Made by a program: the position numbers and the translations under genes. This document shows, piece after piece, positions 2,978 through 59,615 of a DNA stretch of 64,000 nucleotides. Position 1 is the first letter of the stretch. Every line of letters begins with the position of its first letter. This stretch comes from Candidatus Micrarchaeota archaeon (GTDB lineage: Archaea; Micrarchaeota; Micrarchaeia; Norongarragalinales; SBBD01). The stretch is taken from the NCBI GenBank assembly GCA_043806595.1, contig JAZDGU010000004.1, forward strand, positions 8,353 through 72,352. Reading direction: 5' to 3'. The notes under the pieces were generated by a model. It saw only the letters and a program-made list of their open reading frames with translations, had not been told where the DNA came from and did not search any database.

Positions 2978-3277
2978 TTAGGCCGGAAGGGCAACCCGGT
3001 CGACAGGAAGCTTGAACCTGAACAAATGCCTGGTGGACTTGCATGGGAGAAGCCTGCCGGATTCCGCCACGCGCATGACCAGCTCCTTTGAGACTGGCAG
3101 GCGCCTCCTACGCGCGCTGACTGAAACGCCGCCGCCCGAATAATCCACGACGACGGCCGGCACCATGCCGATGCCGATTCTTTTCAGGCATGCCAGCCGG
3201 TGGTGGCCGTCGAGCACGACGAAATCCTCGCTCACGACGAGCGGGTGGACGCCGCCGGCGGAGGCGATTTCGGCCAT
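2978..3277 (-). CDS. ParB-like nuclease domain protein
   Basis: VLDGHHRLACLKRIG matches the ParB/sulfiredoxin DGHHR motif. Start chosen at the internal ATG preceded by GGAGAGGGAGGTG. The ORF track extends to 3367. Confidence 0.55.
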   Translation of the reverse strand: MAEIASAGGVHPLVVSEDFVVLDGHHRLACLKRIGIGMVPAVVVDYSGGGVSVSARRRRLPVSKELVMRVAESGRLLPCKSTRHLFRFKLPVDRVALPA

Positions 3278-3347
3278 CACCTCCCTCTCCCGGCGCGCGC
3301 TGGTCCTCTCGTGCGCCTTGAGCAGGGACGTTGGCAACATTACTGGC

Positions 3348-4670
3348 CTAATCCTTGAGCTCGCCATCCAGATACGCCCGGTACCCGTTCAAGTCCAGCA
3401 GGCCGTGGCCGCTGAGGTTGAAGACAATGGCCTTTCCGGCATTGCTCTTCCTGCACGCAAGCGCCTCGTCGATTACTGCGGAAATCGCATGCGCGGACTC
3501 CGGCGCGGGGACTATCCCTTCGGTGTGGGCGAAGAGCAGACCGGCCTCGAAGGTTTTCGCCTGCGGGTAGGCAACGGGCCGCACGAGGCCCTGGTCGATG
3601 AGCAGGGAAACCGCCGGGGCCATGCCGTGGAAGCGCAGCCCGCCGGCGTGTATGGGGGAGGGCACGAAGTCCCTGCCAAGCGTGTGCATCTTCAACAGGG
3701 GGGTCGTGCCCGCGGCGTCGCCGAAGTCGTACTCGTACCTGCCCTTGGTCGTCGACGGGCAGGAAACCGGCTCGACGGCAACGAACTTGGCCGAAGACGT
3801 GCCTTTCAGGCGGTCCTGCATGAAGGGAAACGCGAAGCCCGCGAAGTTGGAGCCTCCGCCGACGCAGCCGATGAGCACGTCCGGGGTATCGCCGGCAATC
3901 TGCAGCTGCGCCTTGGCCTCAAGGCCGATGACGGTCTGGTGCAAGAGCACGTGGTTGAGAACCGAGCCGAGCGAATATTTAGCGCCAGGGTTTGCCGCGA
4001 CCATCTCGAGCGCCTCGCTTATCGCGATTCCGATCGAACCGGGGTGGCCCGGCCGTGCGGCAAGCACCTTGCGGCCGAACCGGGTGCGCTTGCCCGGCGA
4101 GGCGTGGACCTTGGCGCCGTACGACTCCATGAGCGTGCGCCGCATGGGCTTCTGCTCGAAGCTGGCCTTGACCATGAACACCTCCACCTGAAGGCCGAAG
4201 AGCGCGCCGGCATATGCCAGCGCCGTCCCCCATTGGCCCGCGCCGGTCTCGGTGTAAAGCTGCCCTACGCCTTCCTTGGCGTTGTAATACGCCTGCGCGA
4301 CCGCGGTGTTCGCCTTGTGGCTGCCGCACGGGTTGAGCGACTCGTTCTTGAAGTAAATTTTCGCCGGCGTCTTCAGGTAGGATTCGAGGCGTTTCGCGCG
4401 GACCAACGGCGTCGGCCTCCCGAGCCGAAGGAGGGCGTCCCTGACCTCGCCGGGAATGCGTATCCGCGGCTCAGCGCTCATCTCCTGCGCTACCAGCGCC
4501 TTGGGGAATATCGCCTCAAGCGCCGCGGCAGGCACCGGCTCCCTTGTCGCGGGGTGCAGGGGCGGCGGCAACGGCGCCGGCAGGTCGGGGAGAATGTTGT
4601 AATACTCCCGCGGGACGTCGTTCTCGTCCAGCAGTATCTTCACCGGTTCACTTGCGCTCATCCAAATCAC
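3348..4670 (-). CDS. trpB: tryptophan synthase beta chain, TrpB2 type
   Basis: 440 aa with the PLP-lysine region [15 protein letters not shown], a GGGSNFAG loop and an overall TrpB2-like N-terminal extension. Confidence 0.85.
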
Positions 4671-4975
4671 CCATCGAACAACGCCCTTGCCAGCCGAGTC
4701 GGCACTACGGGCATGAACTTCGAATCCCTACCGCCGCCCTCAAGCAGGCCGAGCGTGCGCATCCGCCGGATCGCCCTGCGGGCCGTCGGCTCGCTGACCC
4801 TGCAGGCCCCCGATACTTCAAGCGCCAGGTGGTAGGAGGAAAGCCGGCCGGAATAGGAATAGGAGTACACGGTCGTGTAGAGCTGGAGCCTGCCGGCGTC
4901 CGAGGAAAGCAACGCACGGCACAGGCGGATGGCTTCAGAATCAGGTTGAGCTAGCGCTGTCCGTGCCCGCGCCAT
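4667..4975 (-). CDS. winged-helix transcriptional regulator
   Basis: 102 aa, HTH-like [20 protein letters not shown]. Stop overlaps the trpB start (ATGA), so it is operonic and a possible trp regulator. Confidence 0.5.
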
Positions 4976-7647: not shown

Positions 7648-10600
7648 CTAGAGTTCCACCTTCCGCGGGCGGTTGCGGGCGAGCGCGGTTCCGGCAAGCG
7701 CGGCGAGGCCGACGGGGGCGAGCCATAGGTAGTCCGGCTGGTTGGATGGAACCGAGCGGGGGACGAGGCGGGCCGAGATTTCGGATGCGGCAAGGTAGGC
7801 GTCGAGATAAAGCTCCTGCGAGATGCCGGCGTCGATTGCCTCGAGGGCTAGCCTGTCCTCCTCGCCGCCGAACTGGCCTACGCGGCTACGCGCGATTTCC
7901 GCCTGATCCAGCGCCATCTCCCGGATTTCCGAGTTGTATGAGTAAAGCGCCGAGGAAGCGCCTTGCAGGGATGCGAGGAAACTCGAGATTCTTGCCGCAG
8001 ACTGCCTGCCCAGCACATCCGGGTCCTTCTCCACAGCATTCGCAACCGCATCGAGCTGCTTGAGTGCAGCCGAAGCCGACTTGAATTCCGCTGCTGCGGC
8101 TGCGGCAAGCGCGGGCTTGCCCGCCCTGGAGGACGAGAAGAAGCGGGAATATTCCTCAATGGCGGTCGAAAAATCCGTTCGCGAGGCCGAGAAGTTCTCC
8201 AGCAGTTCGGAGACCGCCTGCGTCGAATCGGGTGCGCCTTCCGCGCCGGCCGGGTTCCATGCGGCCGCGGATGCCGGCGCGCCTACAGCGTCGGACGCGG
8301 GCGGGGGCGTCGCAAGGATTGCGGGCTGCGCGCCCTCCATCGACGCAAGGGACTGTTCGACCTCGTAGGCGGCCTCGAGCGCCTCCTCCCAACGCGAATC
8401 CAAGGCAAGGCTCTTGGCGTCCGAGAGTTTGGCCTGAAGCGGGGAATCCGGCACGGACGCAAGGCGTTCATCGAGCTCGGCGAGCTTGAGCCGGAACGCA
8501 TCCTCGGAGAAGCCCGCGCATTCGACGGACAGCGCGACGGAACGGGCCTCGCCCTCGCGCCAGGCACCTGAAGAAAGCCTCGCCCAGAGCATTCCTCCGG
8601 CATGCCCGACCGACGCCTTCAGTTCTGGCGGGAAGGACGCATTCGCGGAAAGTATTTCGCACGGCAGGGAGTCGTCGAACCGGAGTTCCGCGGAGCCGAG
8701 GTCCGAAAAAACGTTCCGGTAGTGTAGCGCGTAATCGAACCGTACGGGCAGGCCGTAAACGGGAACCGTTGTCCGGGAGGCGGAATGCTCGAACGGGTTT
8801 GCGGAGAAGAATGTGATTTCCAGATCGGTCCTGCCGGATGCAGCGTCGAGGACCAGCTCCAGCCAGCCTTTGGAGAACGTATCGCCGTAGGGCGCGGAAG
8901 ACGACACGGAATAATTCGAGCCCGGGGGAGCCCGAATCCGGAACAGCACGGGCAGGGGCAACGAGGAGTCGATTGAAACGGAAACCGCCTTCTCGGCGGA
9001 ATCCAGCCCAGCGGCAGACGCGCGCTCATTCATTGCGACAATCCGCGACGGCACCGCGGAGAAGGCGATGGCGACGGAATAATCCGATTGGATTACGCCG
9101 GAGAAGACCGCGCGCAGGCCGCCCTGACCCGATTCAACGGAAAGTCCGGGGGAGGCGTTCACAACGCGGGCGTCGGAGGCGTTGAACGGAAGGGCGACAT
9201 AAAACTTTTCCGGGGACTCGAAGGGCAAGGAATTCCCGAATGAGACCCGGGCTTCAACGTCGGCCCGCGCCCCAGGCTCGGTGGGGACAGCTGAAAATTG
9301 GACGAGCATGCTCCCCTCCAGCTCGCCCTGGATAAGCCGGCCTTTGTCCTTCTCCACGCCTGCGCGCACTGACGAGAGAAAAACCCGCATCGGCTTGAGG
9401 CGCCCGACGGCCTGCAAAGGGTCCAACTTGCCGCCGTGGAAAAACCCGGAATAAGCGGAAAGTGCATCGCGCTCGCCCGCCGAAAGGAACGCCTCCGCGG
9501 CCTCGGCGAATGCGAAGTCGGATTCGACGGAAGCGAACTCCTCGAACGCAGCGCGCCGCAGGCCTTCCTCGATGCCCAACAGTTCTCCGGAAAGAACCCT
9601 GACCGCGGCGTAATTGCCCTCGGAAGGCTCGGACAGGCGGCCGAGTGCGGACGCAACGGTCGACAGCCTCTGCCGGAACGCGGTGACGTCGATGCCGTCC
9701 TTCTCCGCGCCGGCGAGAAGGCCGCCGAGGCGCTGCGCCGCGCCTTCCGCCTCGGAATGGGCGAAGGCATATGCGTCCTGCGCGCCGCATGCCTCGCGGA
9801 TCCTGCCGAGGAAGACCAGCTGGGCCAGCAGGTGCGTGATCCTCGCGCCCGCCGAATTCTTCGACGCGTATTCGACGCGCATCTTCCCGAAATCGGAGAG
9901 CATCGACTGGAGCACGGCATACGATACCGGCTCGCCGCGCCTGCCTTCGGCAAGGAGCCTCACTTCCGCTTCTTCCCTCGCGGACCTTCCCTCGAGCAGC
10001 ATGCGCGCCGAGGACGCCGACTCCATGAGCTCGCCCCCGCCGTCCGAAATTCCCTCGAGGATGGCGAGTGCGCGCCGGCGCAGGACCACGGCGCGGCCGA
10101 GGTAGCCGCGGCTCCTCGCCGAAAGCAAATCATCCGCCTGCCTGGCAACCAGCTTTGCGAGCGACCCGTCCTCCTCGAGTGCGCGCACCCCGTCCTTGAA
10201 GGAGACCGGCCCGCTTGAGGGCTCGAAGATGCCGCCGTAGATGTACGGATACGCCTCCTCCGGGATGTCGGCAAGCTCCTCCTGCTTGATGCGGGCGAGC
10301 ACTGCATCCGCGGCCAGCCGTGCCACCTCGAGTGCCTCGCCGAGGCTCCGGCTCGCCTGCCACATGCCGGTTATGGATTCGTCGATGCGGCGGGCAAGCG
10401 AAAAAGTGCACGCCAGCACGGAATTCGGGCCGGCGAGGTCCTGCAGCACCGACAAATTGGCGATGTTCGCGAGGTAGTCCTCGCTGAGGGCGCGGAGCTT
10501 TGACGAAGACGAGACCATCCTCTGCCCGAGGGAGGTGCCGTCCGACGACGAGGAAAGGAGATGGCGCTCGGTCTCCCTGATTTCGTTGCGCACGCCCTGG

Positions 10601-11037
10601 GCGAAGTCATCGGACTCGTCCTGCAGGGCCTCGAACTCCGCGAACCGCGAGTCAAGCGCCTCGAGTCCGGCGCGGGCAGCCGAGGACGCCTCGTTGAGCG
10701 CGTCGACGGCCAGGTAGTGGCAGCCGAGGACGACGAGCGGCCGCAGGTGCGGGGCGATGTGGAACACATCCTGCACGGATGCGAGCAGCTTAGCGTGCCG
10801 GAGGTGCGTGCGGGCGGAATCGTAGTGCGCAAGCGCCTTGGCGAAACCCGCGCCTTGCAGCACGGGCAGCCCATCGAGGTCCATCGCCGACACGTAGCGG
10901 CAATTCGAGGACAGCGAGGCGAGCTTGACGAAGGAGACGTGCACTTCCGGAAGAAGGTAGTTGTATTCCGAAAGCGATGAGGCGCCCGCGAGGAACGCGA
11001 GCAAAAGCGAGGCAAAGACGGCACGCAAGCGAATCAC
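7648..11037 (-). CDS. large secreted alpha/beta protein, N-terminal signal peptide and C-terminal TM anchor with basic tail (1129 aa)
   Basis: Signal-like N-terminus (MIRLRAVFASLLLAFLAGASS). Ala/Leu/Glu/Arg-rich helical halves flank a Ser/Val-rich beta region. C-terminus LAPVGLAALAGTALARNRPRKVEL. No Walker A motif. Translationally coupled to the TadC-like gene. Confidence 0.6.
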   Translation of the reverse strand: MIRLRAVFASLLLAFLAGASSLSEYNYLLPEVHVSFVKLASLSSNCRYVSAMDLDGLPVLQGAGFAKALAHYDSARTHLRHAKLLASVQDVFHIAPHLRPLVVLGCHYLAVDALNEASSAARAGLEALDSRFAEFEALQDESDDFAQGVRNEIRETERHLLSSSSDGTSLGQRMVSSSSKLRALSEDYLANIANLSVLQDLAGPNSVLACTFSLARRIDESITGMWQASRSLGEALEVARLAADAVLARIKQEELADIPEEAYPYIYGGIFEPSSGPVSFKDGVRALEEDGSLAKLVARQADDLLSARSRGYLGRAVVLRRRALAILEGISDGGGELMESASSARMLLEGRSAREEAEVRLLAEGRRGEPVSYAVLQSMLSDFGKMRVEYASKNSAGARITHLLAQLVFLGRIREACGAQDAYAFAHSEAEGAAQRLGGLLAGAEKDGIDVTAFRQRLSTVASALGRLSEPSEGNYAAVRVLSGELLGIEEGLRRAAFEEFASVESDFAFAEAAEAFLSAGERDALSAYSGFFHGGKLDPLQAVGRLKPMRVFLSSVRAGVEKDKGRLIQGELEGSMLVQFSAVPTEPGARADVEARVSFGNSLPFESPEKFYVALPFNASDARVVNASPGLSVESGQGGLRAVFSGVIQSDYSVAIAFSAVPSRIVAMNERASAAGLDSAEKAVSVSIDSSLPLPVLFRIRAPPGSNYSVSSSAPYGDTFSKGWLELVLDAASGRTDLEITFFSANPFEHSASRTTVPVYGLPVRFDYALHYRNVFSDLGSAELRFDDSLPCEILSANASFPPELKASVGHAGGMLWARLSSGAWREGEARSVALSVECAGFSEDAFRLKLAELDERLASVPDSPLQAKLSDAKSLALDSRWEEALEAAYEVEQSLASMEGAQPAILATPPPASDAVGAPASAAAWNPAGAEGAPDSTQAVSELLENFSASRTDFSTAIEEYSRFFSSSRAGKPALAAAAAAEFKSASAALKQLDAVANAVEKDPDVLGRQSAARISSFLASLQGASSALYSYNSEIREMALDQAEIARSRVGQFGGEEDRLALEAIDAGISQELYLDAYLAASEISARLVPRSVPSNQPDYLWLAPVGLAALAGTALARNRPRKVEL

Positions 11038-20823: not shown

Positions 20824-20978
20824 CCGTTTCCTCCCCTCGGGGCAACCATTAAAAACCTGCTTTCCCAAACAATTGGTGTCAGCGGTCATAGGCCGGGGGC
20901 AACACCCGTTCCCTTTTCGAACACGGAAGTAAAGCCCCGGTGCGATTCCGTCGGTACTGCCCTGCGGGTGGGAAAGCG

Positions 20979-21013
20979 GGATACCGCTGCGCTTCAACAA
21001 CCCCCAGCGCAGC
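20979..21013 (+). repeat. direct-repeat / hairpin element, upstream copy flanking RHH-PIN module 2
   Basis: GATACCGCTGCGCTT (15 nt exact) plus CAACAACCCCCAGCGCAGC. The inverted GCTGCGC/GCGCAGC arms can form a hairpin. Second copy at 21734. Confidence 0.5.
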
Positions 21014-25680: not shown

Positions 25681-26610
25681 CTATCCATGCGCGGCACCCA
25701 CCAATTGCTTGACCGAGGAATAGCCGTTCGCCTTCATCCACTGCCCCATTTCCGTGCAGACCTGCGAAAATACGTCGAAGCCGCGCCAGTAGACCGCGCT
25801 GCCGATGCCTACCGCAGAGGCGCCGGCCATGAGCATCTCGACGGCATCCGAGCCGGTGGCGACGCCGCCGGTGCCAATAATAGGGATTTTTACGGAGGCG
25901 TAGACGTCGTAGACGCACTTGAGCGCGATGGGCTTGAGCGCCGGGCCGGAGACGCCGCCGGACTTGTTCGCGAGCACCGGCCGACGGAGCTCGGCGTTGA
26001 TTGCCATGCCCTTCGCGGTGTTGATGGCGGTGATGCCGTCGGCGCCGGCGGATTCAACTGCCTTGGCCATGACGGAGATGTCCGCGCAGTTGGGCGACAG
26101 CTTTGCAAATACGGGAATCTTGGTCGCGGACTTTACCGCGGAGACCACTGCAGAGGCCGACTCCGGGTTGCTGGAGAAGTCGCCGTAGGAGGAGAAGTCC
26201 TTTTCAGTCGAAAGGTGCGGGCAGGAGAGGTCGAGCTCGAGGAAATCGGGCTTTGCACGCGAAATTTTCTCCGCGACCTCGGCGAACTTGCGCGGCGAGG
26301 ACTCGAAGACGCTGGCGATGACCGCGGCCTTGGTCTTCTTCTTCAGCAGGGCGACGGTCTTCGCCTCCTCCTCGACGCCCGGATTTGCCAGGCCTACGGC
26401 GTTGAGCATGTAGTGCGGCGTGCTCACGACCGTCGGGTTCGGAAAGCCCTCGCGGCCCCGCAGGTTGCAGGACTTGGTGGTGAGCGCGCCTGCGCCGCAC
26501 CTGGCGGCGAAGGACATGACGTCCGCCGAGGTCCCCAGGATTCCGCTGGCGAGCACGGTCGGGTTGGAAAGGCGCTTCCCGCAGAGGTTGGTTTCGAGAG
26601 AGGTATTCAT
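25681..26610 (-). CDS. pyrD: dihydroorotate dehydrogenase catalytic subunit (class 1B)
   Basis: 309 aa with SNPTVLASG, NAVGLANPG, and an FMN-binding TIM-barrel pattern. Directly upstream of pyrK and pyrC. Confidence 0.85.
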   Translation of the reverse strand: MNTSLETNLCGKRLSNPTVLASGILGTSADVMSFAARCGAGALTTKSCNLRGREGFPNPTVVSTPHYMLNAVGLANPGVEEEAKTVALLKKKTKAAVIASVFESSPRKFAEVAEKISRAKPDFLELDLSCPHLSTEKDFSSYGDFSSNPESASAVVSAVKSATKIPVFAKLSPNCADISVMAKAVESAGADGITAINTAKGMAINAELRRPVLANKSGGVSGPALKPIALKCVYDVYASVKIPIIGTGGVATGSDAVEMLMAGASAVGIGSAVYWRGFDVFSQVCTEMGQWMKANGYSSVKQLVGAAHG

Positions 26611-26616
26611 GTGGGG

Positions 26617-26796
26617 TCACGACTCGAGGAAGAGCCACGCGGCGAGGGAGACGGCAAAGCACGCGCCGGAAATCCACAAGAGCGGGCTTACGGCTCCGCG
26701 CTTGCGGTGCCGCGCCAGTCTCGCGAAATAGATGAACGCGCCCGCGGAGACTAGCACCACGCCCAGCAAGGCGATTTTCCGGGTATCGAGCGGCAT
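26617..26796 (-). CDS. small membrane protein (59 aa)
   Basis: Hand-translated: MPLDTRKIALLGVVLVSAGAFIYFARLARHRKRGAVSPLLWISGACFAVSLAAWLFLES. GGAGAA SD. Two TM helices. Below the cutoff. Confidence 0.35.
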   Translation of the reverse strand: MPLDTRKIALLGVVLVSAGAFIYFARLARHRKRGAVSPLLWISGACFAVSLAAWLFLES

Positions 26797-26865
26797 TGGT
26801 CTGTTCTCCTAACGGAATATTTCGGGAAACCCGAATAAAAAGGGGCGCGATGGCAGGCGGGGGCA

Positions 26866-27561
26866 TCAGGCAAGGAAGTACAGCAGCGCCCACGTGAGCG
26901 CCAGCCCTGCGAAGAAATACAGCGGACGGCCCTTGCGCTTCTGCGGCAGGATGCCGCGGAGCACGGAATACAATATGACGCCGAGCATGAAGCTGAAGAT
27001 GATGAAGAAGTAATGAGGGTTCAGCTGGAGGTAGCCTGCGGCAAGCGCGCCCGCTATCGGGGCGGAGGCGAGCACGGCATTCCCGAACACGCCGGCGCTG
27101 AAATGCTCGAGGATGTGCGCCGTGGAGAGGCTGGAGGCGAGCATGTGCACCACGAACGGAATCAGCGCGAAGTAGGCCTTGGCAGGATCGACGGCCTGCA
27201 TGACGAACACGAGCGCGAAGCCCACGATGAAGCTGTCGGCGAACGAACCGAGGGCGTGCAGTTCGCCGAGTTCGCTTATCAGCTGCCTCCTGTTGGAAAC
27301 GTGCTGGTAGACGTACTTCTCGACGAGGTGGAATGCTGCCAGCCCGAGCAGCATCGCCGCGAACAGTTCCTTCTCCGCGGAAGGCGGGGCGCGCAACAGA
27401 ACCGGGAACAGCGCGAGGAAGAAATAGGAGAGGAACACGCCCGCGGAGAAGCTGACGACCTCGGAATGGTGGCGTTCGAGCCTGCGGGCTATGGGGACGC
27501 TGAAGAAGCGGAGCACTGCGAGAACCGTCACGAAAGCCAGCGCGAAGTCGGAGGCAAGCAT
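26866..27561 (-). CDS. ZIP family metal transporter
   Basis: 231 aa, about 8 TM segments, with ZIP His/Asp motifs (HxxxD and HALGSFADSFIVG). Confidence 0.7.
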   Translation of the reverse strand: MLASDFALAFVTVLAVLRFFSVPIARRLERHHSEVVSFSAGVFLSYFFLALFPVLLRAPPSAEKELFAAMLLGLAAFHLVEKYVYQHVSNRRQLISELGELHALGSFADSFIVGFALVFVMQAVDPAKAYFALIPFVVHMLASSLSTAHILEHFSAGVFGNAVLASAPIAGALAAGYLQLNPHYFFIIFSFMLGVILYSVLRGILPQKRKGRPLYFFAGLALTWALLYFLA

Positions 27562-27647
27562 GCAAGCGTAATGCCTGACGAATAGAAAAAGGTTGCTGCG
27601 GCGAGCAAAGCGAAAGCGTTTTTATTGGCACGCGATAAAGGGGGGTC

Positions 27648-29867
27648 ATGGTCGCCGTGGAGCAGCTGCCCATAATCGAGATAGGGGTCGTCATACTCAC
27701 GGCGCTGCTATCCGGCATACTCTTCTCCAGGCTCGGCCAGAGCTCGGCGATCGGCTACATCGCCGCGGGCTTGGTGCTCGGCCCGCTCGGGTTCAACATG
27801 CTCGCCGGCGAAGGCGTCGGCGTCGCCTCCCTGCTCGGCGAGATCGGCGTCACCATGCTGCTGTTCTACCTCGGGCTGGAGCTCAGCATGAGGAAATTCC
27901 AGGAGACCGGCGCGGTGGCGACGGTGCTCGCGTTCGTCGAGATGCTCTTCGCGTTCGTCGCCGGCTTCCTCATCGCGCGCTTCTTCGGGTTCTCGCAGAT
28001 AGAGGCGATGGTAATCGGCGCGATGCTGACTGCGACGAGCACCGTGATCACGGGCAAGTTCCTCATCGAGCGCGGCCTCATCAACACGCCGGAGGCGCGC
28101 GTCACCATCTCAGTGCTCATCCTCGAGGACTTCTTCGCGATACTCGTGCTCGTGTTCATCGCCATGCTGTCCCAGCAGCAGACCGTGAACCTGCCGGTGC
28201 TCAACGCGCTGTTCTTCGTCATCGCGATGTTCTTCGTCGTGAGCAAGGTCAGCAAGCACGTGCTCAACATCCTCAACAGCATCGGCAGGGAGGACCAGAT
28301 GTGGCTATACAGCATGGGCATCTTCCTCGTCGTCTCATACTTCGGGAGCGAGTACCTCGGCCTGAGTCCGGCAATCGGCGCGTATTTCGCGGGCTTCGCC
28401 CTCGCCGAAAGCGCCTACGGGGAGAAGATAAAGCGCGAGCTGGGGCTGTTCCGCGAGTTCTTCGTGCTGTTCTTCTTCGTGAGCTTCGGCGCAACGACGA
28501 CGTTCCCGTCGGACCCGATGCTCTATTGGCTCGTTGCCGCGCTTGCCGCGGGCTACGTGCTGGCCAAGCTCGTCGCGCACGGCATCACCGGCACCGCGAT
28601 AGGCATGGAGCTCAAGTCCGCGGTCACGGGCGGCATACTCATGAGCCCGCTCGGCGAGTTCGCAATAATCATCGCCATCGCCGCGAAGGGCATACTGCCG
28701 CATGCTTCCGACGTGCTCTCGGTCGCATTCCTGCTCACGATCTCGACGACGATAGCCTTGCCGATACTGTATGGCGGCAGGGAAAGGATCGCAGCAGTGT
28801 TCGAGAGGTTCTTCCCGATAAGGCTGCAGGAGCAGAGCCGCATCCTCCAGAGGGAGATGAACGCCGTGGACCGCATGGCGCGCGACGTCGCCGCGCAGAA
28901 CGAGTTCGTGCGCTCCCTCGGGAGGCTGTTCACGCAGCTGGTCATCGCGGTCTCCATCGTCTACCTCAGCTACCTCACGCAGGCCGAATTCTCGATCCCG
29001 TTCCTCGAGTTCCTGCCCGCGGGGCTTTCCCCGGGTCTGGTCATCCTGCCGCTCGTGGTGTGGCCCCTGTACAAGTTCATTGCCGAGCTCAAGCACCTGA
29101 CGCGGCAGGCCGCGCGCGGGCTCGTGTTCAACAGCTTTCGGCCGTCGAACGAGGTCGTCGAGGGCATCGAGCTCGACGCAGCCGACGTCTTCACGGGCAT
29201 AGTCCTCACGCTCTTCGGCGTGGGCTCGACGGCGTTCGTGTTCTACGCGTTCCCGGGCGAGTACATGTTCGTGCTCATCCCCGCTACCTACACGCTGCTC
29301 TCGCTCATGTACCTCAGCAAGTCGTTCTACGGGCTCATCGAGCAGTACGAGGCTATGGAGACGCAGATGGGCATAGAAGGAGAGAAGATACCGGACAAGA
29401 GGGTGGTCGAGCTGGCGAAGGAGTTCAACGAGCACGCCAAATACTTCCGGCAGCTCAACCTCGAGAGGCTGAAGGCGCACGAGGACGTCTCGGACGCGCT
29501 CAGGAGCGAGGACCTGCAGTCCGCAAAGCATTCGCTCATCAGCTTCAAGAAGAGGGAGACCAAGGCGCTCGTCAACCTCTTCGACTTCAAGGGGCTCGCG
29601 GGGTTCCCGCGGCTCAAGAAGCTCGTCGGCGAGGGGCTGGAGCGCAACAAGGAGTTCCACGGCGGCGTGCACGAGGCCAAGACGCGCGCGGCGTTCCAGA
29701 AATACCTCTCGCAGCACCTCAAGCCGCACCTCTTCGAGGCCCGGCCCTCCTCGCCGGAAGCCGGCTCGAGCCTGGATGCCGCGGCGCAGACGCTGATAGA
29801 GCGCGAGCTCGCCAAGAGCAGGCAGAAGCCCGGGAAGGCCGCCGGAAAGCTGAGGAAGCGCAACTGA
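27648..29867 (+). CDS. cation:proton antiporter (CPA2/Kef-type) with long C-terminal soluble domain
   Basis: 739 aa. N-terminal approximately 400-aa Na+/H+ exchanger membrane domain (GYIAAGLVLGP, LFYLGLEL). C-terminal charged helical region. The 817-aa ORF in another frame is an Arg-rich artefact. Confidence 0.8.
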   Translation: MVAVEQLPIIEIGVVILTALLSGILFSRLGQSSAIGYIAAGLVLGPLGFNMLAGEGVGVASLLGEIGVTMLLFYLGLELSMRKFQETGAVATVLAFVEMLFAFVAGFLIARFFGFSQIEAMVIGAMLTATSTVITGKFLIERGLINTPEARVTISVLILEDFFAILVLVFIAMLSQQQTVNLPVLNALFFVIAMFFVVSKVSKHVLNILNSIGREDQMWLYSMGIFLVVSYFGSEYLGLSPAIGAYFAGFALAESAYGEKIKRELGLFREFFVLFFFVSFGATTTFPSDPMLYWLVAALAAGYVLAKLVAHGITGTAIGMELKSAVTGGILMSPLGEFAIIIAIAAKGILPHASDVLSVAFLLTISTTIALPILYGGRERIAAVFERFFPIRLQEQSRILQREMNAVDRMARDVAAQNEFVRSLGRLFTQLVIAVSIVYLSYLTQAEFSIPFLEFLPAGLSPGLVILPLVVWPLYKFIAELKHLTRQAARGLVFNSFRPSNEVVEGIELDAADVFTGIVLTLFGVGSTAFVFYAFPGEYMFVLIPATYTLLSLMYLSKSFYGLIEQYEAMETQMGIEGEKIPDKRVVELAKEFNEHAKYFRQLNLERLKAHEDVSDALRSEDLQSAKHSLISFKKRETKALVNLFDFKGLAGFPRLKKLVGEGLERNKEFHGGVHEAKTRAAFQKYLSQHLKPHLFEARPSSPEAGSSLDAAAQTLIERELAKSRQKPGKAAGKLRKRN

Positions 29868-56585: not shown

Positions 56586-56671
56586 ATGAACGCGGGGAAG
56601 AGACCAGTAAGAAATGAAAAGTATTAAAAATATTAATAGTGTGAATTTTATCAACCGAGGAGGTGATTTGG

Positions 56672-56908
56672 ATGGCGCAGATGCTTTCCGTGCCGCTGCC
56701 GGACGACCTGAAGAAGGACCTCGACAGGCACAAGGAAATTAAGTGGGTGGAGATCGCGAGGCAGGCGCTCAGGGACAAGGTGGAGGCGCTTGACGAGATG
56801 GACGAATTCTTCGCAAAAAGCAGCCTGACGGCGGAGGACGTGGAAAAGCATGCGAGAGCCGTCAGCAAGAACGTGTGGAAGAGGCATAAGAAGGAACTGG
56901 GGCTTTAG
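56672..56908 (+). CDS. RHH-type antitoxin (paralog 3 of 3)
   Basis: 78 aa. MAQMLSVPLPDDLKKDLD. SD GGAGGTGA 6 nt upstream. The ORF track starts at 56663. Confidence 0.6.
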   Translation: MAQMLSVPLPDDLKKDLDRHKEIKWVEIARQALRDKVEALDEMDEFFAKSSLTAEDVEKHARAVSKNVWKRHKKELGL

Positions 56909-57334
56909 ATGCCGATCGAACTAGCAGTGGATGCCAACGTGCTGTTCTCGGCGATGCTCGCGGACGGCACGACCAGGCGGCTCATACTCGACCGGAGGCT
57001 CAGGCTCTGCGCGCCGTCTTATTTGATGGAGGAAATGCTGAGGCACATGCGGGGCGACGACAAGCTCGCAAGAAAGCTGAACCGGACAAAAGAGGAGGCG
57101 GCGATGCAGCTGCAGAGCCTCGGGAGGCACATCGAGGTTGTGCCGCTCGAGGAGTACGGGGCCAGCATACCGGAGGTTCTGAAAGACTGCCCGGATCCCT
57201 TCGATGCCGAGTATCTTGCAGTCGCAAAACGGCGCAGCATCCCATTGTGGACGAACGACAGGAGACTCAAGAACCAGGCGGCCGTTGAAGTGCTGAACAC
57301 GCGCGAGGTCCTCGAACTGCTGGGACGGAAATGA
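56909..57334 (+). CDS. PIN-domain toxin (paralog 3 of 3)
   Basis: 141 aa. MPIELAVDANVLFSAML ... WTNDRRL. ATG abuts the antitoxin stop. Confidence 0.75.
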   Translation: MPIELAVDANVLFSAMLADGTTRRLILDRRLRLCAPSYLMEEMLRHMRGDDKLARKLNRTKEEAAMQLQSLGRHIEVVPLEEYGASIPEVLKDCPDPFDAEYLAVAKRRSIPLWTNDRRLKNQAAVEVLNTREVLELLGRK

Positions 57335-57347
57335 CCGCAGCAGGCGT

Positions 57348-57527
57348 TCAGACGGCGAGCATGAGGAGGCCGATGAACGCGAGGAACACCCCGAAGAGGA
57401 TCACCGCGCCCTGGACGGCGACGCCGAGCATGGCCCAGGCCCCGGCGGACTGGAACCAATAGTACCACGAGGCTGCGATTACCAGGAGGCCGAGGATGAG
57501 AGAAGCTATGCCTGCCTTGCTCAGCAT
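57348..57527 (-). CDS. small membrane protein (59 aa) whose 3' end is duplicated upstream of TA module 3
   Basis: Hand-translated: MLSKAGIASLILGLLVIAASWYYWFQSAGAWAMLGVAVQGAVILFGVFLAFIGLLMLAV. Its last 10 codons plus stop form the 34-bp repeat 57348..57381. Confidence 0.4.
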   Translation of the reverse strand: MLSKAGIASLILGLLVIAASWYYWFQSAGAWAMLGVAVQGAVILFGVFLAFIGLLMLAV

Positions 57528-57545
57528 GTGCCTGCACCCCAGTGC

Positions 57546-57836
57546 CTACTTGATGAAGTCGTCGAGCAGCTCCACCGCGCGCCTGATGCTCTGCGCGATC
57601 TGCTTCTCGCTCTTTGCGCCGCTGCAGATTACCTTGCCGTTCTTGAACAGCAAAAGCGTGGTTCCGATCTCCTTGAGGCGCATGATGGCGCCCGGGAACT
57701 GCTCGGGCTCGTACTCGACGTTGTCGACTTCCATGGCGATGTTGAACAGGTCGAGCTCGACGTTGAGGTTCGCCGAGGCGACGATGTTCTCCACCTTGAA
57801 GCCCATGTTTATGTGCGGGCGTTTTTTCTTGACCAT
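57546..57836 (-). CDS. tbp: single-repeat TATA-box-binding-protein homolog (half-size TBP, 96 aa)
   Basis: ENIVASANLNVELDLFNIA ... EYEPEQFPGAIMRL ... LLLFKNGKVICSGAKSEKQI matches one TBP repeat (closest to the C-terminal repeat). Clean stop. No second repeat is encoded on either side. AT-rich promoter with TTTAAATA and a leaderless start. Confidence 0.7.
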   Translation of the reverse strand: MVKKKRPHINMGFKVENIVASANLNVELDLFNIAMEVDNVEYEPEQFPGAIMRLKEIGTTLLLFKNGKVICSGAKSEKQIAQSIRRAVELLDDFIK

Positions 57837-57881
57837 ACAATAAAAGGGTATTTAAAGGGACTTTAAAAAGCCATCGGTCGG

Positions 57882-58148
57882 CTAGACCAGAAGGTAGATG
57901 AAACCGAGGAAGAACAGGAAGAGGACCGCCGAACCGATCACTGGCCAGGCATGCTCCCACAAGTTGAACAGTAAGACGAATAGCAGTATCGTGGCGGGCA
58001 ACGCCAGCGAGGACCCTACAATCGAGCCTGCGAGTCCTCCCGTGAACGGCCAGAATATCTCTTCTATGGAGAGGTGGAGGTGGCCCTGGAACACGAACAT
58101 GACGACCATGAAGCCCAAGACGAGGGTTATGATGTTGTCCTGCAGCAT
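57882..58148 (-). CDS. small membrane protein
   Basis: 88 aa, three hydrophobic helices. Confidence 0.45.
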   Translation of the reverse strand: MLQDNIITLVLGFMVVMFVFQGHLHLSIEEIFWPFTGGLAGSIVGSSLALPATILLFVLLFNLWEHAWPVIGSAVLFLFFLGFIYLLV

Positions 58149-58373
58149 GCAATCACTACACCACTAAAAGGTAGTTACAAATTTAAAAACCCTGCGGTGC
58201 TTTAAAGCCGTCAAAGGGTTTGCTGAAGAGGCAAATTGACCGGAAGACATGGCCTCCCGATAATCGGGAAGGGGAGGGGGGCGAAGGGTTTAAAATGAAT
58301 CCTCGGCATAAGAGAGCATTCGCTGATTGTGGGCGAATAGGCATAATAGCTAGACTGCGGAAGGGTGTCTTTG

Positions 58374-58649
58374 TTGAAGAGAAGCCACGGCAAATATTCG
58401 GGCAGGGGAAGGAACCTGACGCGCAAGGCCAGGGTGTCCCCGGCGCGCAGGCTCGCCAGCTTCGCTGCGGGGGAGAGGGTGCGCATCGACGTTAACCCGT
58501 CGTTCAAGCACGGCATGCCGCACCTGCGGTTCAACCACAAGATGGCCAAGGTGATCAGAACGCAGGGCAACGGGATCCTGGTCAAGGTATACGACGGAAA
58601 CAAGGAGAAGACGCTGGCGGTTGCGAACGTCCACCTCGCTCGCGGGTGA
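58374..58649 (+). CDS. rpl21e: 50S ribosomal protein L21e
   Basis: KRSHGKYSGRGRNL ... FKHGMPHLRFNHKMAKV ... VKVYDGNKEKTLAVANVHL matches L21e. Start set at the TTG 6 nt after SD GGAAGGGTG (the ORF track's GTG at 58365 is an alternative). Confidence 0.8.
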   Translation: MKRSHGKYSGRGRNLTRKARVSPARRLASFAAGERVRIDVNPSFKHGMPHLRFNHKMAKVIRTQGNGILVKVYDGNKEKTLAVANVHLARG

Positions 58650-58658
58650 AAACAGCAT

Positions 58659-58991
58659 ATGAACGTCGTCGAGGACAAGAAGCTCACTAACGCGGAAGCG
58701 AAGGCACTGCTCACCAGGCGCAAGAAGGACGCGCCGGAGATGGGCTACGAGCAGGCCAATACTCTCGAATACCTCGAGAAGTTCACGCATCTCGACGCGG
58801 ACGACGCGGCGAAGATGCGCAAGGAGCTCGGCGACCTCGGGTTCCTCGAGCCGGGGCAGATAACCGACCTGGCGAACGTCCTGCCGAAGAAGGAGGAGAC
58901 CGTCAGGGCGGTGCTAACGCGGGAGAAGCTGCCGGTGAACGCCGAGCAGGTCAAGGAAGTGCTGAAGGTCTGCAAGAAGTACGCGAAGTGA
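58659..58991 (+). CDS. rpoF: DNA-directed RNA polymerase subunit F (Rpb4 homolog)
   Basis: 110 aa. Conserved archaeal gene order L21e-RpoF-DUF655. Helical HRDC-like composition. Confidence 0.65.
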   Translation: MNVVEDKKLTNAEAKALLTRRKKDAPEMGYEQANTLEYLEKFTHLDADDAAKMRKELGDLGFLEPGQITDLANVLPKKEETVRAVLTREKLPVNAEQVKEVLKVCKKYAK

Positions 58992-58997
58992 GCAAAC

Positions 58998-59615
58998 ATG
59001 TTCAAGAAGGAGGAGCACGCGCTCGTGCTCGACTTCCTGCCGACGGGGAAGGCCGGCGAGGCGAGGCAGGAGCCGACGGCGCAAGTGCTCGGGGAGACCT
59101 ATTTCACGCTGCTTGAGGTCGTGACAAAGCCGGGAGTCGAGCTCAAGCCCCTCGAGAAAGTGTACATCGGCCAGGCGGAGCGCGACAAGGTCGAGAGGAT
59201 AAAGTGCAGGCTGACGTACGCCCAGCTGACGAACTCCGCGCAGCGCGAGGCCGACACCGCGATAAGGCAGATAGTCCCGTCGCGCGAGCAGGACTTCGTC
59301 GGGTTCATCAACCGCGCCGGGCCGATAAACATCCGCATCCACGCGCTCGAGCTGCTGCCTAACATCGGGAAGAAGAACCTCGAGGTGCTTCTCGCCGAGC
59401 GCGACAAGAGGCCGTTCGCGAGCTTCGAGGACATCAAGGCGAGGGTGCCGCACCTCTCGCACGTGCAGGACAGCATCCTCGCGCGAATCATTCAGGAGCT
59501 GAAGGCCGAGGAGAAGTACTACCTTTTCGTCAAGATCCCGCCGAAGGAGGAGACCGGCGAGGGCTACCACGAGAGGAGGTACGGCGACCGGCCATACGGC
59601 GAGCGCAGGTACTGA
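58998..59615 (+). CDS. DUF655 family nucleic-acid-binding protein
   Basis: 205 aa. EHALVLDFLPTGK ... AQVLGETYFTLLEV matches the DUF655 N-terminal OB-like motif. Conserved position after rpoF. Confidence 0.7.
   Translation: MFKKEEHALVLDFLPTGKAGEARQEPTAQVLGETYFTLLEVVTKPGVELKPLEKVYIGQAERDKVERIKCRLTYAQLTNSAQREADTAIRQIVPSREQDFVGFINRAGPINIRIHALELLPNIGKKNLEVLLAERDKRPFASFEDIKARVPHLSHVQDSILARIIQELKAEEKYYLFVKIPPKEETGEGYHERRYGDRPYGERRY

Follow-up and report, generated by a model that had tools for sequence, protein, structure and literature searches.

TBP, the TATA-box-binding protein, is required for transcription initiation in both Archaea and Eukarya, and its textbook form is a two-repeat, pseudo-symmetric chain that derives from a duplicated homodimeric ancestor, an ancestor that has so far only been inferred. 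Here we describe a stand-alone single-repeat TBP (hereafter half-TBP) encoded in a 64,000-nucleotide stretch of a Candidatus Micrarchaeota archaeon genome (GenBank assembly GCA_043806595.1, contig JAZDGU010000004.1, positions 8,353 to 72,352), which in its full length we refer to as the window. The canonical archaeal TBPs of Pyrococcus woesei (1PCZ/1AIS), Sulfolobus (1MP9) and Methanocaldococcus (2Z8U) share with half-TBP the repeat fold, the PF00352 domain, a phenylalanine pair and the stirrup motif, with 36-39% identity to the solved chains in structural alignment, and the canonical TBPs of related DPANN lineages share its chromosomal position as well. Unlike a canonical TBP of about 180 residues, half-TBP has one repeat in 96 residues, so that a saddle would need a homodimer with exact two-fold symmetry. 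It further differs in having no N or C repeat identity, in carrying a basic N-terminal tail, and in a turn between strands S3 and S4 that reads EIGTT rather than EPK. The nearest relatives are the two-repeat TBPs of other Micrarchaeota (Anstonellaceae, Bilamarchaeaceae and 'Micrarchaeia') and of Iainarchaeota, which are 52-64% identical to it per repeat, occupy the same L21e-RpoF-DUF655 locus and have unusually symmetric repeats (53-93% identity); they differ from half-TBP in being covalent two-repeat chains of about 175-270 residues, many of the named ones being called TATA-box-binding protein by PGAP, the NCBI annotation pipeline.

Single TBP-fold modules also occur outside this group. The N-terminal TBP-like domain of RNase HIII is a nucleic-acid-binding module of this kind, fused to a nuclease and not a transcription factor, and its sequence relation to half-TBP is only distant. 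TbpA of Halobacteria is, like half-TBP, a stand-alone one-repeat protein; it clusters with genuine TBP repeats and has been described as closely resembling the full-length TBPs of its own species and as dispensable (PMC3597702). Half-TBP departs from TbpA in its orthologous TBP locus, in its conservation across a deep clade, and in that no full-length copy was found in the window and related loci (912 kb). The monopartite TBP-domain proteins of Thermococcales resemble half-TBP in size (~91-97 residues) and in their single TBP-like domain; they are highly diverged, form a separate cluster and coexist with canonical TBPs (PMC3597702, Table 3), unlike half-TBP, which is a near-consensus TBP repeat that scores about 108 bits on N-repeat and C-repeat profiles alike, matches either repeat of its nearest two-repeat relatives at 55-64% identity and shows no comparable divergence. 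In a full-text literature search, most subscription journals lying outside its reach, Halobacteria and Thermococcales were the only groups with monopartite TBP-domain proteins (PMC3597702), and no such protein came up for Micrarchaeota. Single-repeat monopartite proteins are hence already known, and what is new here is a one-repeat chain whose gene sits at the orthologous TBP locus, as a feature that defines a deep clade.

We propose, with a probability of roughly 70%, that half-TBP is the general TBP of a clade of Micrarchaeota (DPANN) and that it acts as a homodimer. The gene and the layout of its product are as follows.

57546..57836, minus strand: single-repeat TBP gene, an ATG-to-TAG open reading frame (ORF) of 96 residues, MVKKKRPHINMGFKVENIVASANLNVELDLFNIAMEVDNVEYEPEQFPGAIMRLKEIGTTLLLFKNGKVICSGAKSEKQIAQSIRRAVELLDDFIK
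Residues 1-12 of the product: basic N-terminal tail
Residues 13-94 of the product: one complete TBP repeat

Pfam assigns the protein a single PF00352 domain, in which residues 13-94 match positions 2-85 of the 85-position profile (E=2.8e-28), and its score of 98 bits, against a gathering cutoff of 22.9 bits, places it in the TBP repeat family. The best phmmer matches in the PDB are archaeal TBPs (2z8u, 1mp9 and 1ais; E=1e-36 to 1e-34), and the repeat matches both repeats of each of these proteins about equally (64.0 and 62.3 bits for 2z8u). A canonical TBP consists of two tandem repeats in one polypeptide of about 180 residues; half-TBP has a single repeat in 96. The original prediction, made from the DNA letters and their translations, of a stand-alone single-repeat TBP of 96 residues with a clean stop is therefore borne out by the ATG-to-TAG ORF and its one PF00352 domain, and the hallmark motifs that it had listed (NIVAS, EYEPEQFPG and SGAKS) are all found. 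It had also stated that neither flank holds a second repeat and that the next gene encodes a membrane protein of 59 residues, in agreement with the ORFs and with the tblastn and profile searches given below.

To place the gene among its relatives, we scanned one genome per GTDB species; the half-TBP loci so obtained are named L001-L056. In the window, two small hydrophobic ORFs tightly flank half-TBP and leave no space for a second repeat.

57882..58148, minus strand: 88-residue hydrophobic ORF upstream of half-TBP (45-bp spacer), between it and the L21e operon
57348..57527, minus strand: 59-residue hydrophobic ORF directly downstream of half-TBP (18-bp spacer)

Neither of these ORFs has a match in Pfam or NCBIfam, and neither is related to TBP. 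The 88-residue ORF is kept only in the closest relatives, L001 and L002 (35-38% identity), and the 59-residue ORF is found at 48-65% identity in L001-L004, L008, L010 and L011. A tblastn search with the half-TBP repeat gave no other match in the whole 64-kb window (next-best E=0.23). Furthermore, a TBP-repeat profile run against the six-frame translation of the window and the 56 related loci, which reach up to 10 kb on each side of the gene or to the contig end (912 kb), returned 57 hits, one per locus, and no second one. The TAG of half-TBP is in frame with the ATG of the 59-residue ORF, 21 nucleotides downstream (window 57527-57548, minus strand), and read-through would fuse the two; this match of frames is probably a coincidence.

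Half-TBP is present in 56 species genomes, titled Micrarchaeota, Micrarchaeia or Norongarragalinales, at 76-97% identity to the window protein. The cleaned ORFs are 91-119 residues long, and the frames close within 97-150 codons, stop to stop, in all 56 loci. Among 5.8 billion proteins searched there were 764 relatives; the best ~110 of these are 86-132 residues long (nearly all 90-116), 78-94% identical to the query and, where named, assigned to Candidatus Micrarchaeota, Micrarchaeia or Norongarragalinales, and some lie on contigs of 100-450 kb. An exact look-up of the window protein in public assemblies gave no record. The short ORF recurs in more than 100 protein clusters of NCBI, JGI, ENA and Logan origin, and the entire half-TBP family forms one cluster in a 50%-identity library. 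Across a 75-codon core of the 57 genes, the median amino-acid identity is 91% and the third-position identity 48%, and the median ratio of nonsynonymous to synonymous substitution rates (dN/dS) is 0.055 for the 613 gene pairs with unsaturated synonymous sites, a substitution pattern indicating that half-TBP is under strong purifying selection.

These data bear on the possibility that half-TBP stems from a frameshift introduced in sequencing or assembly, or that it is a pseudogene fragment in decay, readings for which its short length is the one argument. Such outcomes, including a truncated pseudogene copy of a full TBP, were the cases that the original prediction had named against itself. The short ORF is intact in 56 independent assemblies and in the more than 100 protein clusters, its stop-to-stop frames span no more than 150 residues, and its flanking ORFs encode hydrophobic proteins without relation to TBP; conservation of the short ORF and strong purifying selection thus exclude frameshift, mis-assembly and pseudogene for all practical purposes.

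The chromosomal position of half-TBP is conserved. In 49 of the 56 loci the gene divergently adjoins an operon encoding L21e, RpoF and a DUF655 protein, and the same layout is present in the window (58365-59615).

58365..58649, plus strand: ribosomal protein L21e (Pfam PF01157, E=7.6e-16), first gene of the divergent anchor operon
58659..58991, plus strand: RNA polymerase subunit F, of the Rpo4/Rpb4 family (Pfam PF03874, E=1.5e-9), second gene of the anchor operon
58998..59615, plus strand: DUF655 protein (Pfam PF04919, E=6e-58), third gene of the anchor operon

More distant DPANN genomes, most of them under the title Iainarchaeum, contributed a further 24 loci to the same scan. Ordinary two-repeat TBPs (most of 186-272 residues) are encoded in 21 of these loci; in 18 of these 21 Iainarchaeota-type loci the two-repeat TBP lies beside L21e-RpoF-DUF655. 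On contigs labelled Micrarchaeia (L081-L083; P0363 and P0344), two-repeat TBPs are directly divergent from L21e-Rpb4-DUF655. Half-TBP is placed as are the two-repeat TBPs of L057-L076 and L080-L083. Because the same locus holds a two-repeat TBP in related Micrarchaeia and Iainarchaeota, half-TBP is the positional orthologue of the canonical, general TBP gene and not an extra copy elsewhere.

The rate of change of half-TBP is that of a general TBP. Across the same loci, identity to the window proteins is 76-97% for half-TBP, 32-59% for L21e, 35-78% for RpoF and 49-82% for DUF655. DUF655 served as the yardstick of divergence and as the marker for a gene tree. Whatever the DUF655 divergence, half-TBP is as conserved as the two-repeat TBPs (84% versus 82% at 50-60% DUF655 identity), which indicates that it is constrained to the degree of a genuine general TBP; the idea that half-TBP is the more constrained of the two was rejected on the same grounds. 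In the DUF655 neighbour-joining tree, the 48 half-TBP genomes and the 19 two-repeat genomes are separated by one bipartition with 86% bootstrap support, a topology that fits a single origin of half-TBP and its stable inheritance in a deep clade.

The position and the rate also bear on what the original prediction had put forward as a possible role of the protein, that of a paralogous regulator or decoy of transcription initiation. Half-TBP would then be an accessory paralogue, analogous to halobacterial TbpA, beside a canonical two-repeat TBP encoded elsewhere, and would for example occupy half-sites or titrate TFB. Single-repeat TBP-domain proteins do coexist with full TBPs in Halobacteria and Thermococcales (PMC3597702), and the rest of the genomes lies beyond the scanned loci. 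We nevertheless consider such a role unlikely, since half-TBP occupies the ancestral TBP locus, changes as slowly as canonical TBPs (dN/dS 0.055), keeps the DNA-kinking and TFB-binding residues described below, and is found in one copy per genome throughout the clade, with no second TBP domain within the 912 kb of window and loci. Moreover, the two-repeat TBPs in two lists of the 120 closest database relatives sit on contigs that do not match the half-TBP contigs in size. From the positional orthology, the equal rate, the clade-wide single copy and the neutrality of the repeat between N and C, we infer that half-TBP would be the only TBP of its genome.

The scan revealed one half-TBP locus type per genome. 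In a single assembly, JAZDKC01, two contigs (L011 and L012) carry a half-TBP locus. Both show one synteny, and L012 encodes a protein identical in sequence to the L013 protein (JBDRLB01, another metagenome-assembled genome of the same study). On account of the shared synteny and of this identity, the assembly looks like a mixed or contaminated bin, and L011 and L012 are not read as paralogues.

We then considered the functional residues of the repeat. F47, F64, N17, V19, R53 and K68 of half-TBP align with their equivalents in 2z8u, 1mp9 and 1ais; these residues and the EYEPEQFPG segment are invariant in 19 aligned orthologues, and the consensus of all 57 genes agrees. In established TBP structures these residues contact DNA and TFB/TFIIB, F47 and F64 being the intercalating pair and N17 and V19 lying in strand S1. 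The EYEPEQFPG stirrup, which forms the loop between S2 and S3, is identical in both repeats of Methanocaldococcus jannaschii TBP and in the C repeat of P. woesei TBP. At the level of sequence, half-TBP has both the kinking phenylalanine pair with the minor-groove residues and the stirrup motif for TFB/TFIIB. The lysine-rich character of the N-terminal tail is likewise conserved across orthologues, and head-to-tail joining of two copies puts this tail at the site of the inter-repeat linker, with 16 residues between the helix end and S1 versus 13 in natural two-repeat TBPs.

The two repeats of canonical TBPs can be told apart by profile, and half-TBP falls between them. Averaged over 71 two-repeat TBPs, its identity is 41.5% to the N repeat and 41.4% to the C repeat, and its N-profile score minus its C-profile score ranges from +1.7 to -4.6 bits, about 0; for the controls, which belonged to the training set, the mean difference is +10.9 bits (N repeats) and -10.4 bits (C repeats). 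A phylogeny against N and C repeats, a check suggested together with the original prediction, was carried out in the form of identities, profiles and neighbour-joining trees, and the repeat came out neither N-like nor C-like. Assignment of half-TBP to the N or the C half was accordingly abandoned, the repeat being equidistant by all three measures, and the lost repeat cannot be named. Half-TBP reads as a consensus repeat that, from its sequence, could fill both the N and the C role.

For half-TBP we infer homodimerisation, TATA binding and TFB recruitment, which would proceed as follows. Two identical 96-residue subunits would pair through the central strand S1 and the C-terminal helix and would build a ten-stranded saddle, as the N- and C-terminal repeats of canonical TBP do. 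With an F47/F64 pair from each subunit, the dimer would kink the TATA box at both ends, and with an identical EYEPEQFPG stirrup on each subunit, TFB could dock on either side. The lysine-rich tail, which is placed like the basic inter-repeat linker of two-repeat TBPs, may add DNA contacts. The direction of transcription would be set only by the contact of TFB with the B recognition element (BRE) and by the promoter sequence. A symmetric TBP would be mechanistically tolerable in this respect because the orientation of the archaeal TBP-TFB-DNA complex depends on the TFB-BRE contact, as stated in the passage of PMC7289017 that cites Bell et al. 1999.

Two copies of the window protein, fused head to tail, were modelled with AlphaFold2. 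The resulting model, with a predicted local distance difference test score (pLDDT) of 90.5 and a predicted template-modelling (TM) score (pTM) of 0.81, is composed of two complete S1-H1-S2-S3-S4-S5-H2 modules. In Foldseek comparisons, the model superposes on whole TBPs (1mp9, 1ais, 1pcz, 2z8u, 1cdw and 1ytb) with TM scores of 0.8-0.9 and root-mean-square deviations of 2-3 Å over ~180-194 columns, and these superpositions speak for compatibility with the saddle only, not for dimerisation of free subunits. The view, already expressed in the original prediction, that the protein would need to homodimerise to form a saddle is supported indirectly.

Several observations weigh against half-TBP being a homodimeric general TBP. 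Its S3-S4 turn reads KEIGTT, versus KEPK in nearly all of the two-repeat TBPs examined. In seven of the 56 loci the L21e synteny is missing, owing to short contigs or rearrangement. The AlphaFold2 construct was covalently tethered, and its alignment of database homologues held seven two-repeat TBPs, full or partial. Finally, the 912 kb scanned are mostly the own neighbourhood of half-TBP, and a canonical TBP or a second divergent half could lie elsewhere.

A divergent half encoded elsewhere would make half-TBP one part of a split TBP, its partner in the heterodimer being another TBP-domain protein with a single, more divergent repeat. Split genes are a known feature of DPANN genomes, a divergent partner would evade a peptide-pattern scan, and DPANN-like lineages do hold other single-repeat TBP proteins.

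L059:6217-6492: single-repeat TBP of a second type, 90-91 residues, ~60% identical to the window protein
L058:3215-3490: same type, length and identity
L078:6637-6909: same type, length and identity
P0198 (152 residues): single-repeat TBP with a lysine-rich N-terminal extension of 65-90 residues, from the 50%-identity representative library
P0245 (177 residues): likewise, from the same library

The families examined among these (L058, L059 and L078), however, come from different organisms, with 31-42% G+C and other synteny. A dedicated half should keep one identity, whereas the half-TBP repeat is neutral between N and C; there is a single locus type per genome, the two loci of JAZDKC01 pointing to a mixed bin; and neighbouring lineages run on nearly identical repeats. 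We regard a split TBP as improbable on these grounds and retain the homodimer of half-TBP as the preferred reading.

The hosts of the second single-repeat type have a G+C content of 31-42%. In both L059 and L078 the context consists of a HerA-like ATPase, the single-repeat TBP and a Rad50-like gene, with TFB ~3 kb downstream, and in L078 an RpoK-like ORF directly follows the single-repeat TBP. The unusual S3-S4 turn is common to L058/L059, where it reads KDIGTT, and to the half-TBP family of Micrarchaeota. P0196 was considered as a further single-repeat family and rejected, as it is probably a fragment, lying on a 746-bp contig and having two-repeat TBPs as its relatives.

To see half-TBP against the TBPs of its neighbours, we turned to a search seeded with a related protein, which gave 119 two-repeat TBPs of 173-191 residues (P0270-P0388), the named ones being from Micrarchaeota, Micrarchaeia, Anstonellaceae, Bilamarchaeaceae or 'ainarchaeum'. 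The two repeats of these proteins are 54-93% identical to one another (median 67%); the corresponding values are 53-63% in Iainarchaeota-type TBPs and 25-50% in most of the other archaeal TBPs sampled. In one Anstonellaceae gene (L084:74-643, JBKBMW010000049.1) DNA identity between the repeats reaches 82%, with 74% at third codon positions; such similarity indicates re-duplication or gene conversion within the TBP gene in the recent past. In a neighbour-joining tree of repeats (81 columns, 500 bootstraps), all the single, N and C repeats of Micrarchaeota and Iainarchaeota group together with 86% support, and the N and C repeats of ten typical archaeal TBPs fall outside this clade; in several lineages the two repeats of a protein pair with each other as sisters (100, 92, 75 and 73% support). 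Near-symmetric TBPs thus function in the phylum, and the number and identity of repeats look fluid in the Micrarchaeota-Iainarchaeota group. A residual N/C signal is present in the two-repeat lineages, at +1 to +3 bits for N and about 0 to -6 bits for C repeats in the Iainarchaeota type, and with medians of +1.1 and -1.8 bits in the Anstonellales type.

Taken at face value, the repeat tree points to an ancestor of the whole group that had a single repeat or homogenised ones, a picture that gene conversion would give as well. In its furthest form, half-TBP would be a relic of the ancestral TBP from before the duplication, the single repeat being primitive and the two-repeat TBPs of Micrarchaeota and Iainarchaeota being later, independent duplications. 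The single clade of all Micrarchaeota and Iainarchaeota repeats (86%), the sister N and C repeats of the same protein in several lineages and the 74% of third codon positions shared by the repeats of the Anstonellaceae gene agree with such a history. Set against it are that the tree comprises 81 columns and was built by neighbour joining only, that gene conversion between repeats yields an identical pattern, and that Iainarchaeota-type and Anstonellales-type repeats retain a weak, consistent N-versus-C profile signal. In addition, two TBP repeats are, to our knowledge, universal in the other Archaea and in Eukarya, and for the deep past a loss in one clade is more parsimonious; we consequently give little credence to an ancestral relic.

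For half-TBP as a homodimeric general TBP, a broader version can be formulated, to which we assign slightly better than even odds. Here the clade would have a single TATA-binding factor, a homodimeric TBP of perfect symmetry that would serve the whole of transcription initiation and would be a living equivalent of the hypothetical pre-duplication TBP. The number of repeats would have switched between one and two several times in Micrarchaeota and Iainarchaeota, through loss, re-duplication or gene conversion, and promoter polarity would reside wholly outside TBP, in the TFB-BRE contact and the flanking DNA.

If true, a lineage with a single-repeat orthologous TBP would possess a native homodimeric TBP, and the hypothesis of a homodimeric ancestor would become directly testable. 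A native symmetric TBP would make it possible to ask how symmetry relates to TATA binding, bending and TFB recruitment, how direction is set without asymmetry in TBP, and what the asymmetry of canonical TBPs was selected for. Furthermore, the near-identical repeats of neighbouring lineages and the other single-repeat forms suggest ongoing fission, re-duplication or gene conversion in DPANN archaea, and offer a rare view of internal-repeat evolution in a core information-processing protein.

Half-TBP also has consequences for annotation. The NCBIfam TBP models (NF001592-NF001601) give it 59-86 bits against cutoffs of 181-347, and because these scores fall below the cutoffs, most family members named by NCBI are called "hypothetical protein". 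Comparative studies may therefore count half-TBP genomes as lacking TBP; in DPANN comparative genomics, TBP has been counted as present in ~89% of genomes (PMC8407392).

Upstream of half-TBP, the window contains two TATA-like boxes.

57862..57869, minus strand: distal TATA-like box TTTTTAAA, centred ~29 nucleotides before the ATG of half-TBP
57849..57856, minus strand: proximal TATA-like box TTTAAATA, 13 bp from the distal box

The distal box is likely the promoter of a nearly leaderless half-TBP mRNA, a putative leaderless transcript being suggested by the position of the box, which fits the usual archaeal spacing from TATA to start. Tandem TATA-like boxes ~13 bp apart (for example CTTTATAAA...CCTTTAAATACC) are kept upstream of half-TBP in L002, L003, L005, L025 and L056, and could represent a dual promoter or an autoregulatory site. 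Many of the more distant half-TBP orthologues have a GGTG Shine-Dalgarno-like element instead of the tandem boxes. A symmetric TBP might leave palindromic TATA boxes as its mark, and the window's A/T runs of 6 bases or more were inspected for them; these runs are heterogeneous and show no clear bias. Among the rare A/T-only runs of the window, the octamer AATAAAAA / TTTTTATT occurs in 7 copies (e.g. at 26834, 32148, 32213, 27619, 47481, 56537 and 60269) and may be a promoter or terminator element.

The window has a G+C content of 62%. Three of its ORFs, at 7648-11037 (minus strand, 1129 residues), 3165-4835 (plus strand) and 26204-27718 (minus strand), have no Pfam match at E<=1e-4, and some of them may be non-coding shadows of genes on the opposite strand, given this composition. 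No tRNA gene was found in the whole 64-kb window, and a stand-alone 5S rRNA gene lies at 20878-20992 on the plus strand (63 bits). The ordinary archaeal chromosomal genes of the window include those for a thermosome, a type IA DNA topoisomerase (Pfam Topoisom_bac), an acetyl-CoA-synthetase-like ligase and a Na/H exchanger, besides the 5S rRNA. At 56663-57334 on the plus strand, an 81-residue ORF is directly followed by a gene for a PIN-domain protein (PF10130, E=8.8e-16), in the manner of a toxin-antitoxin pair, and this pair adjoins the TBP locus only in the window and in its closest relative, L001.

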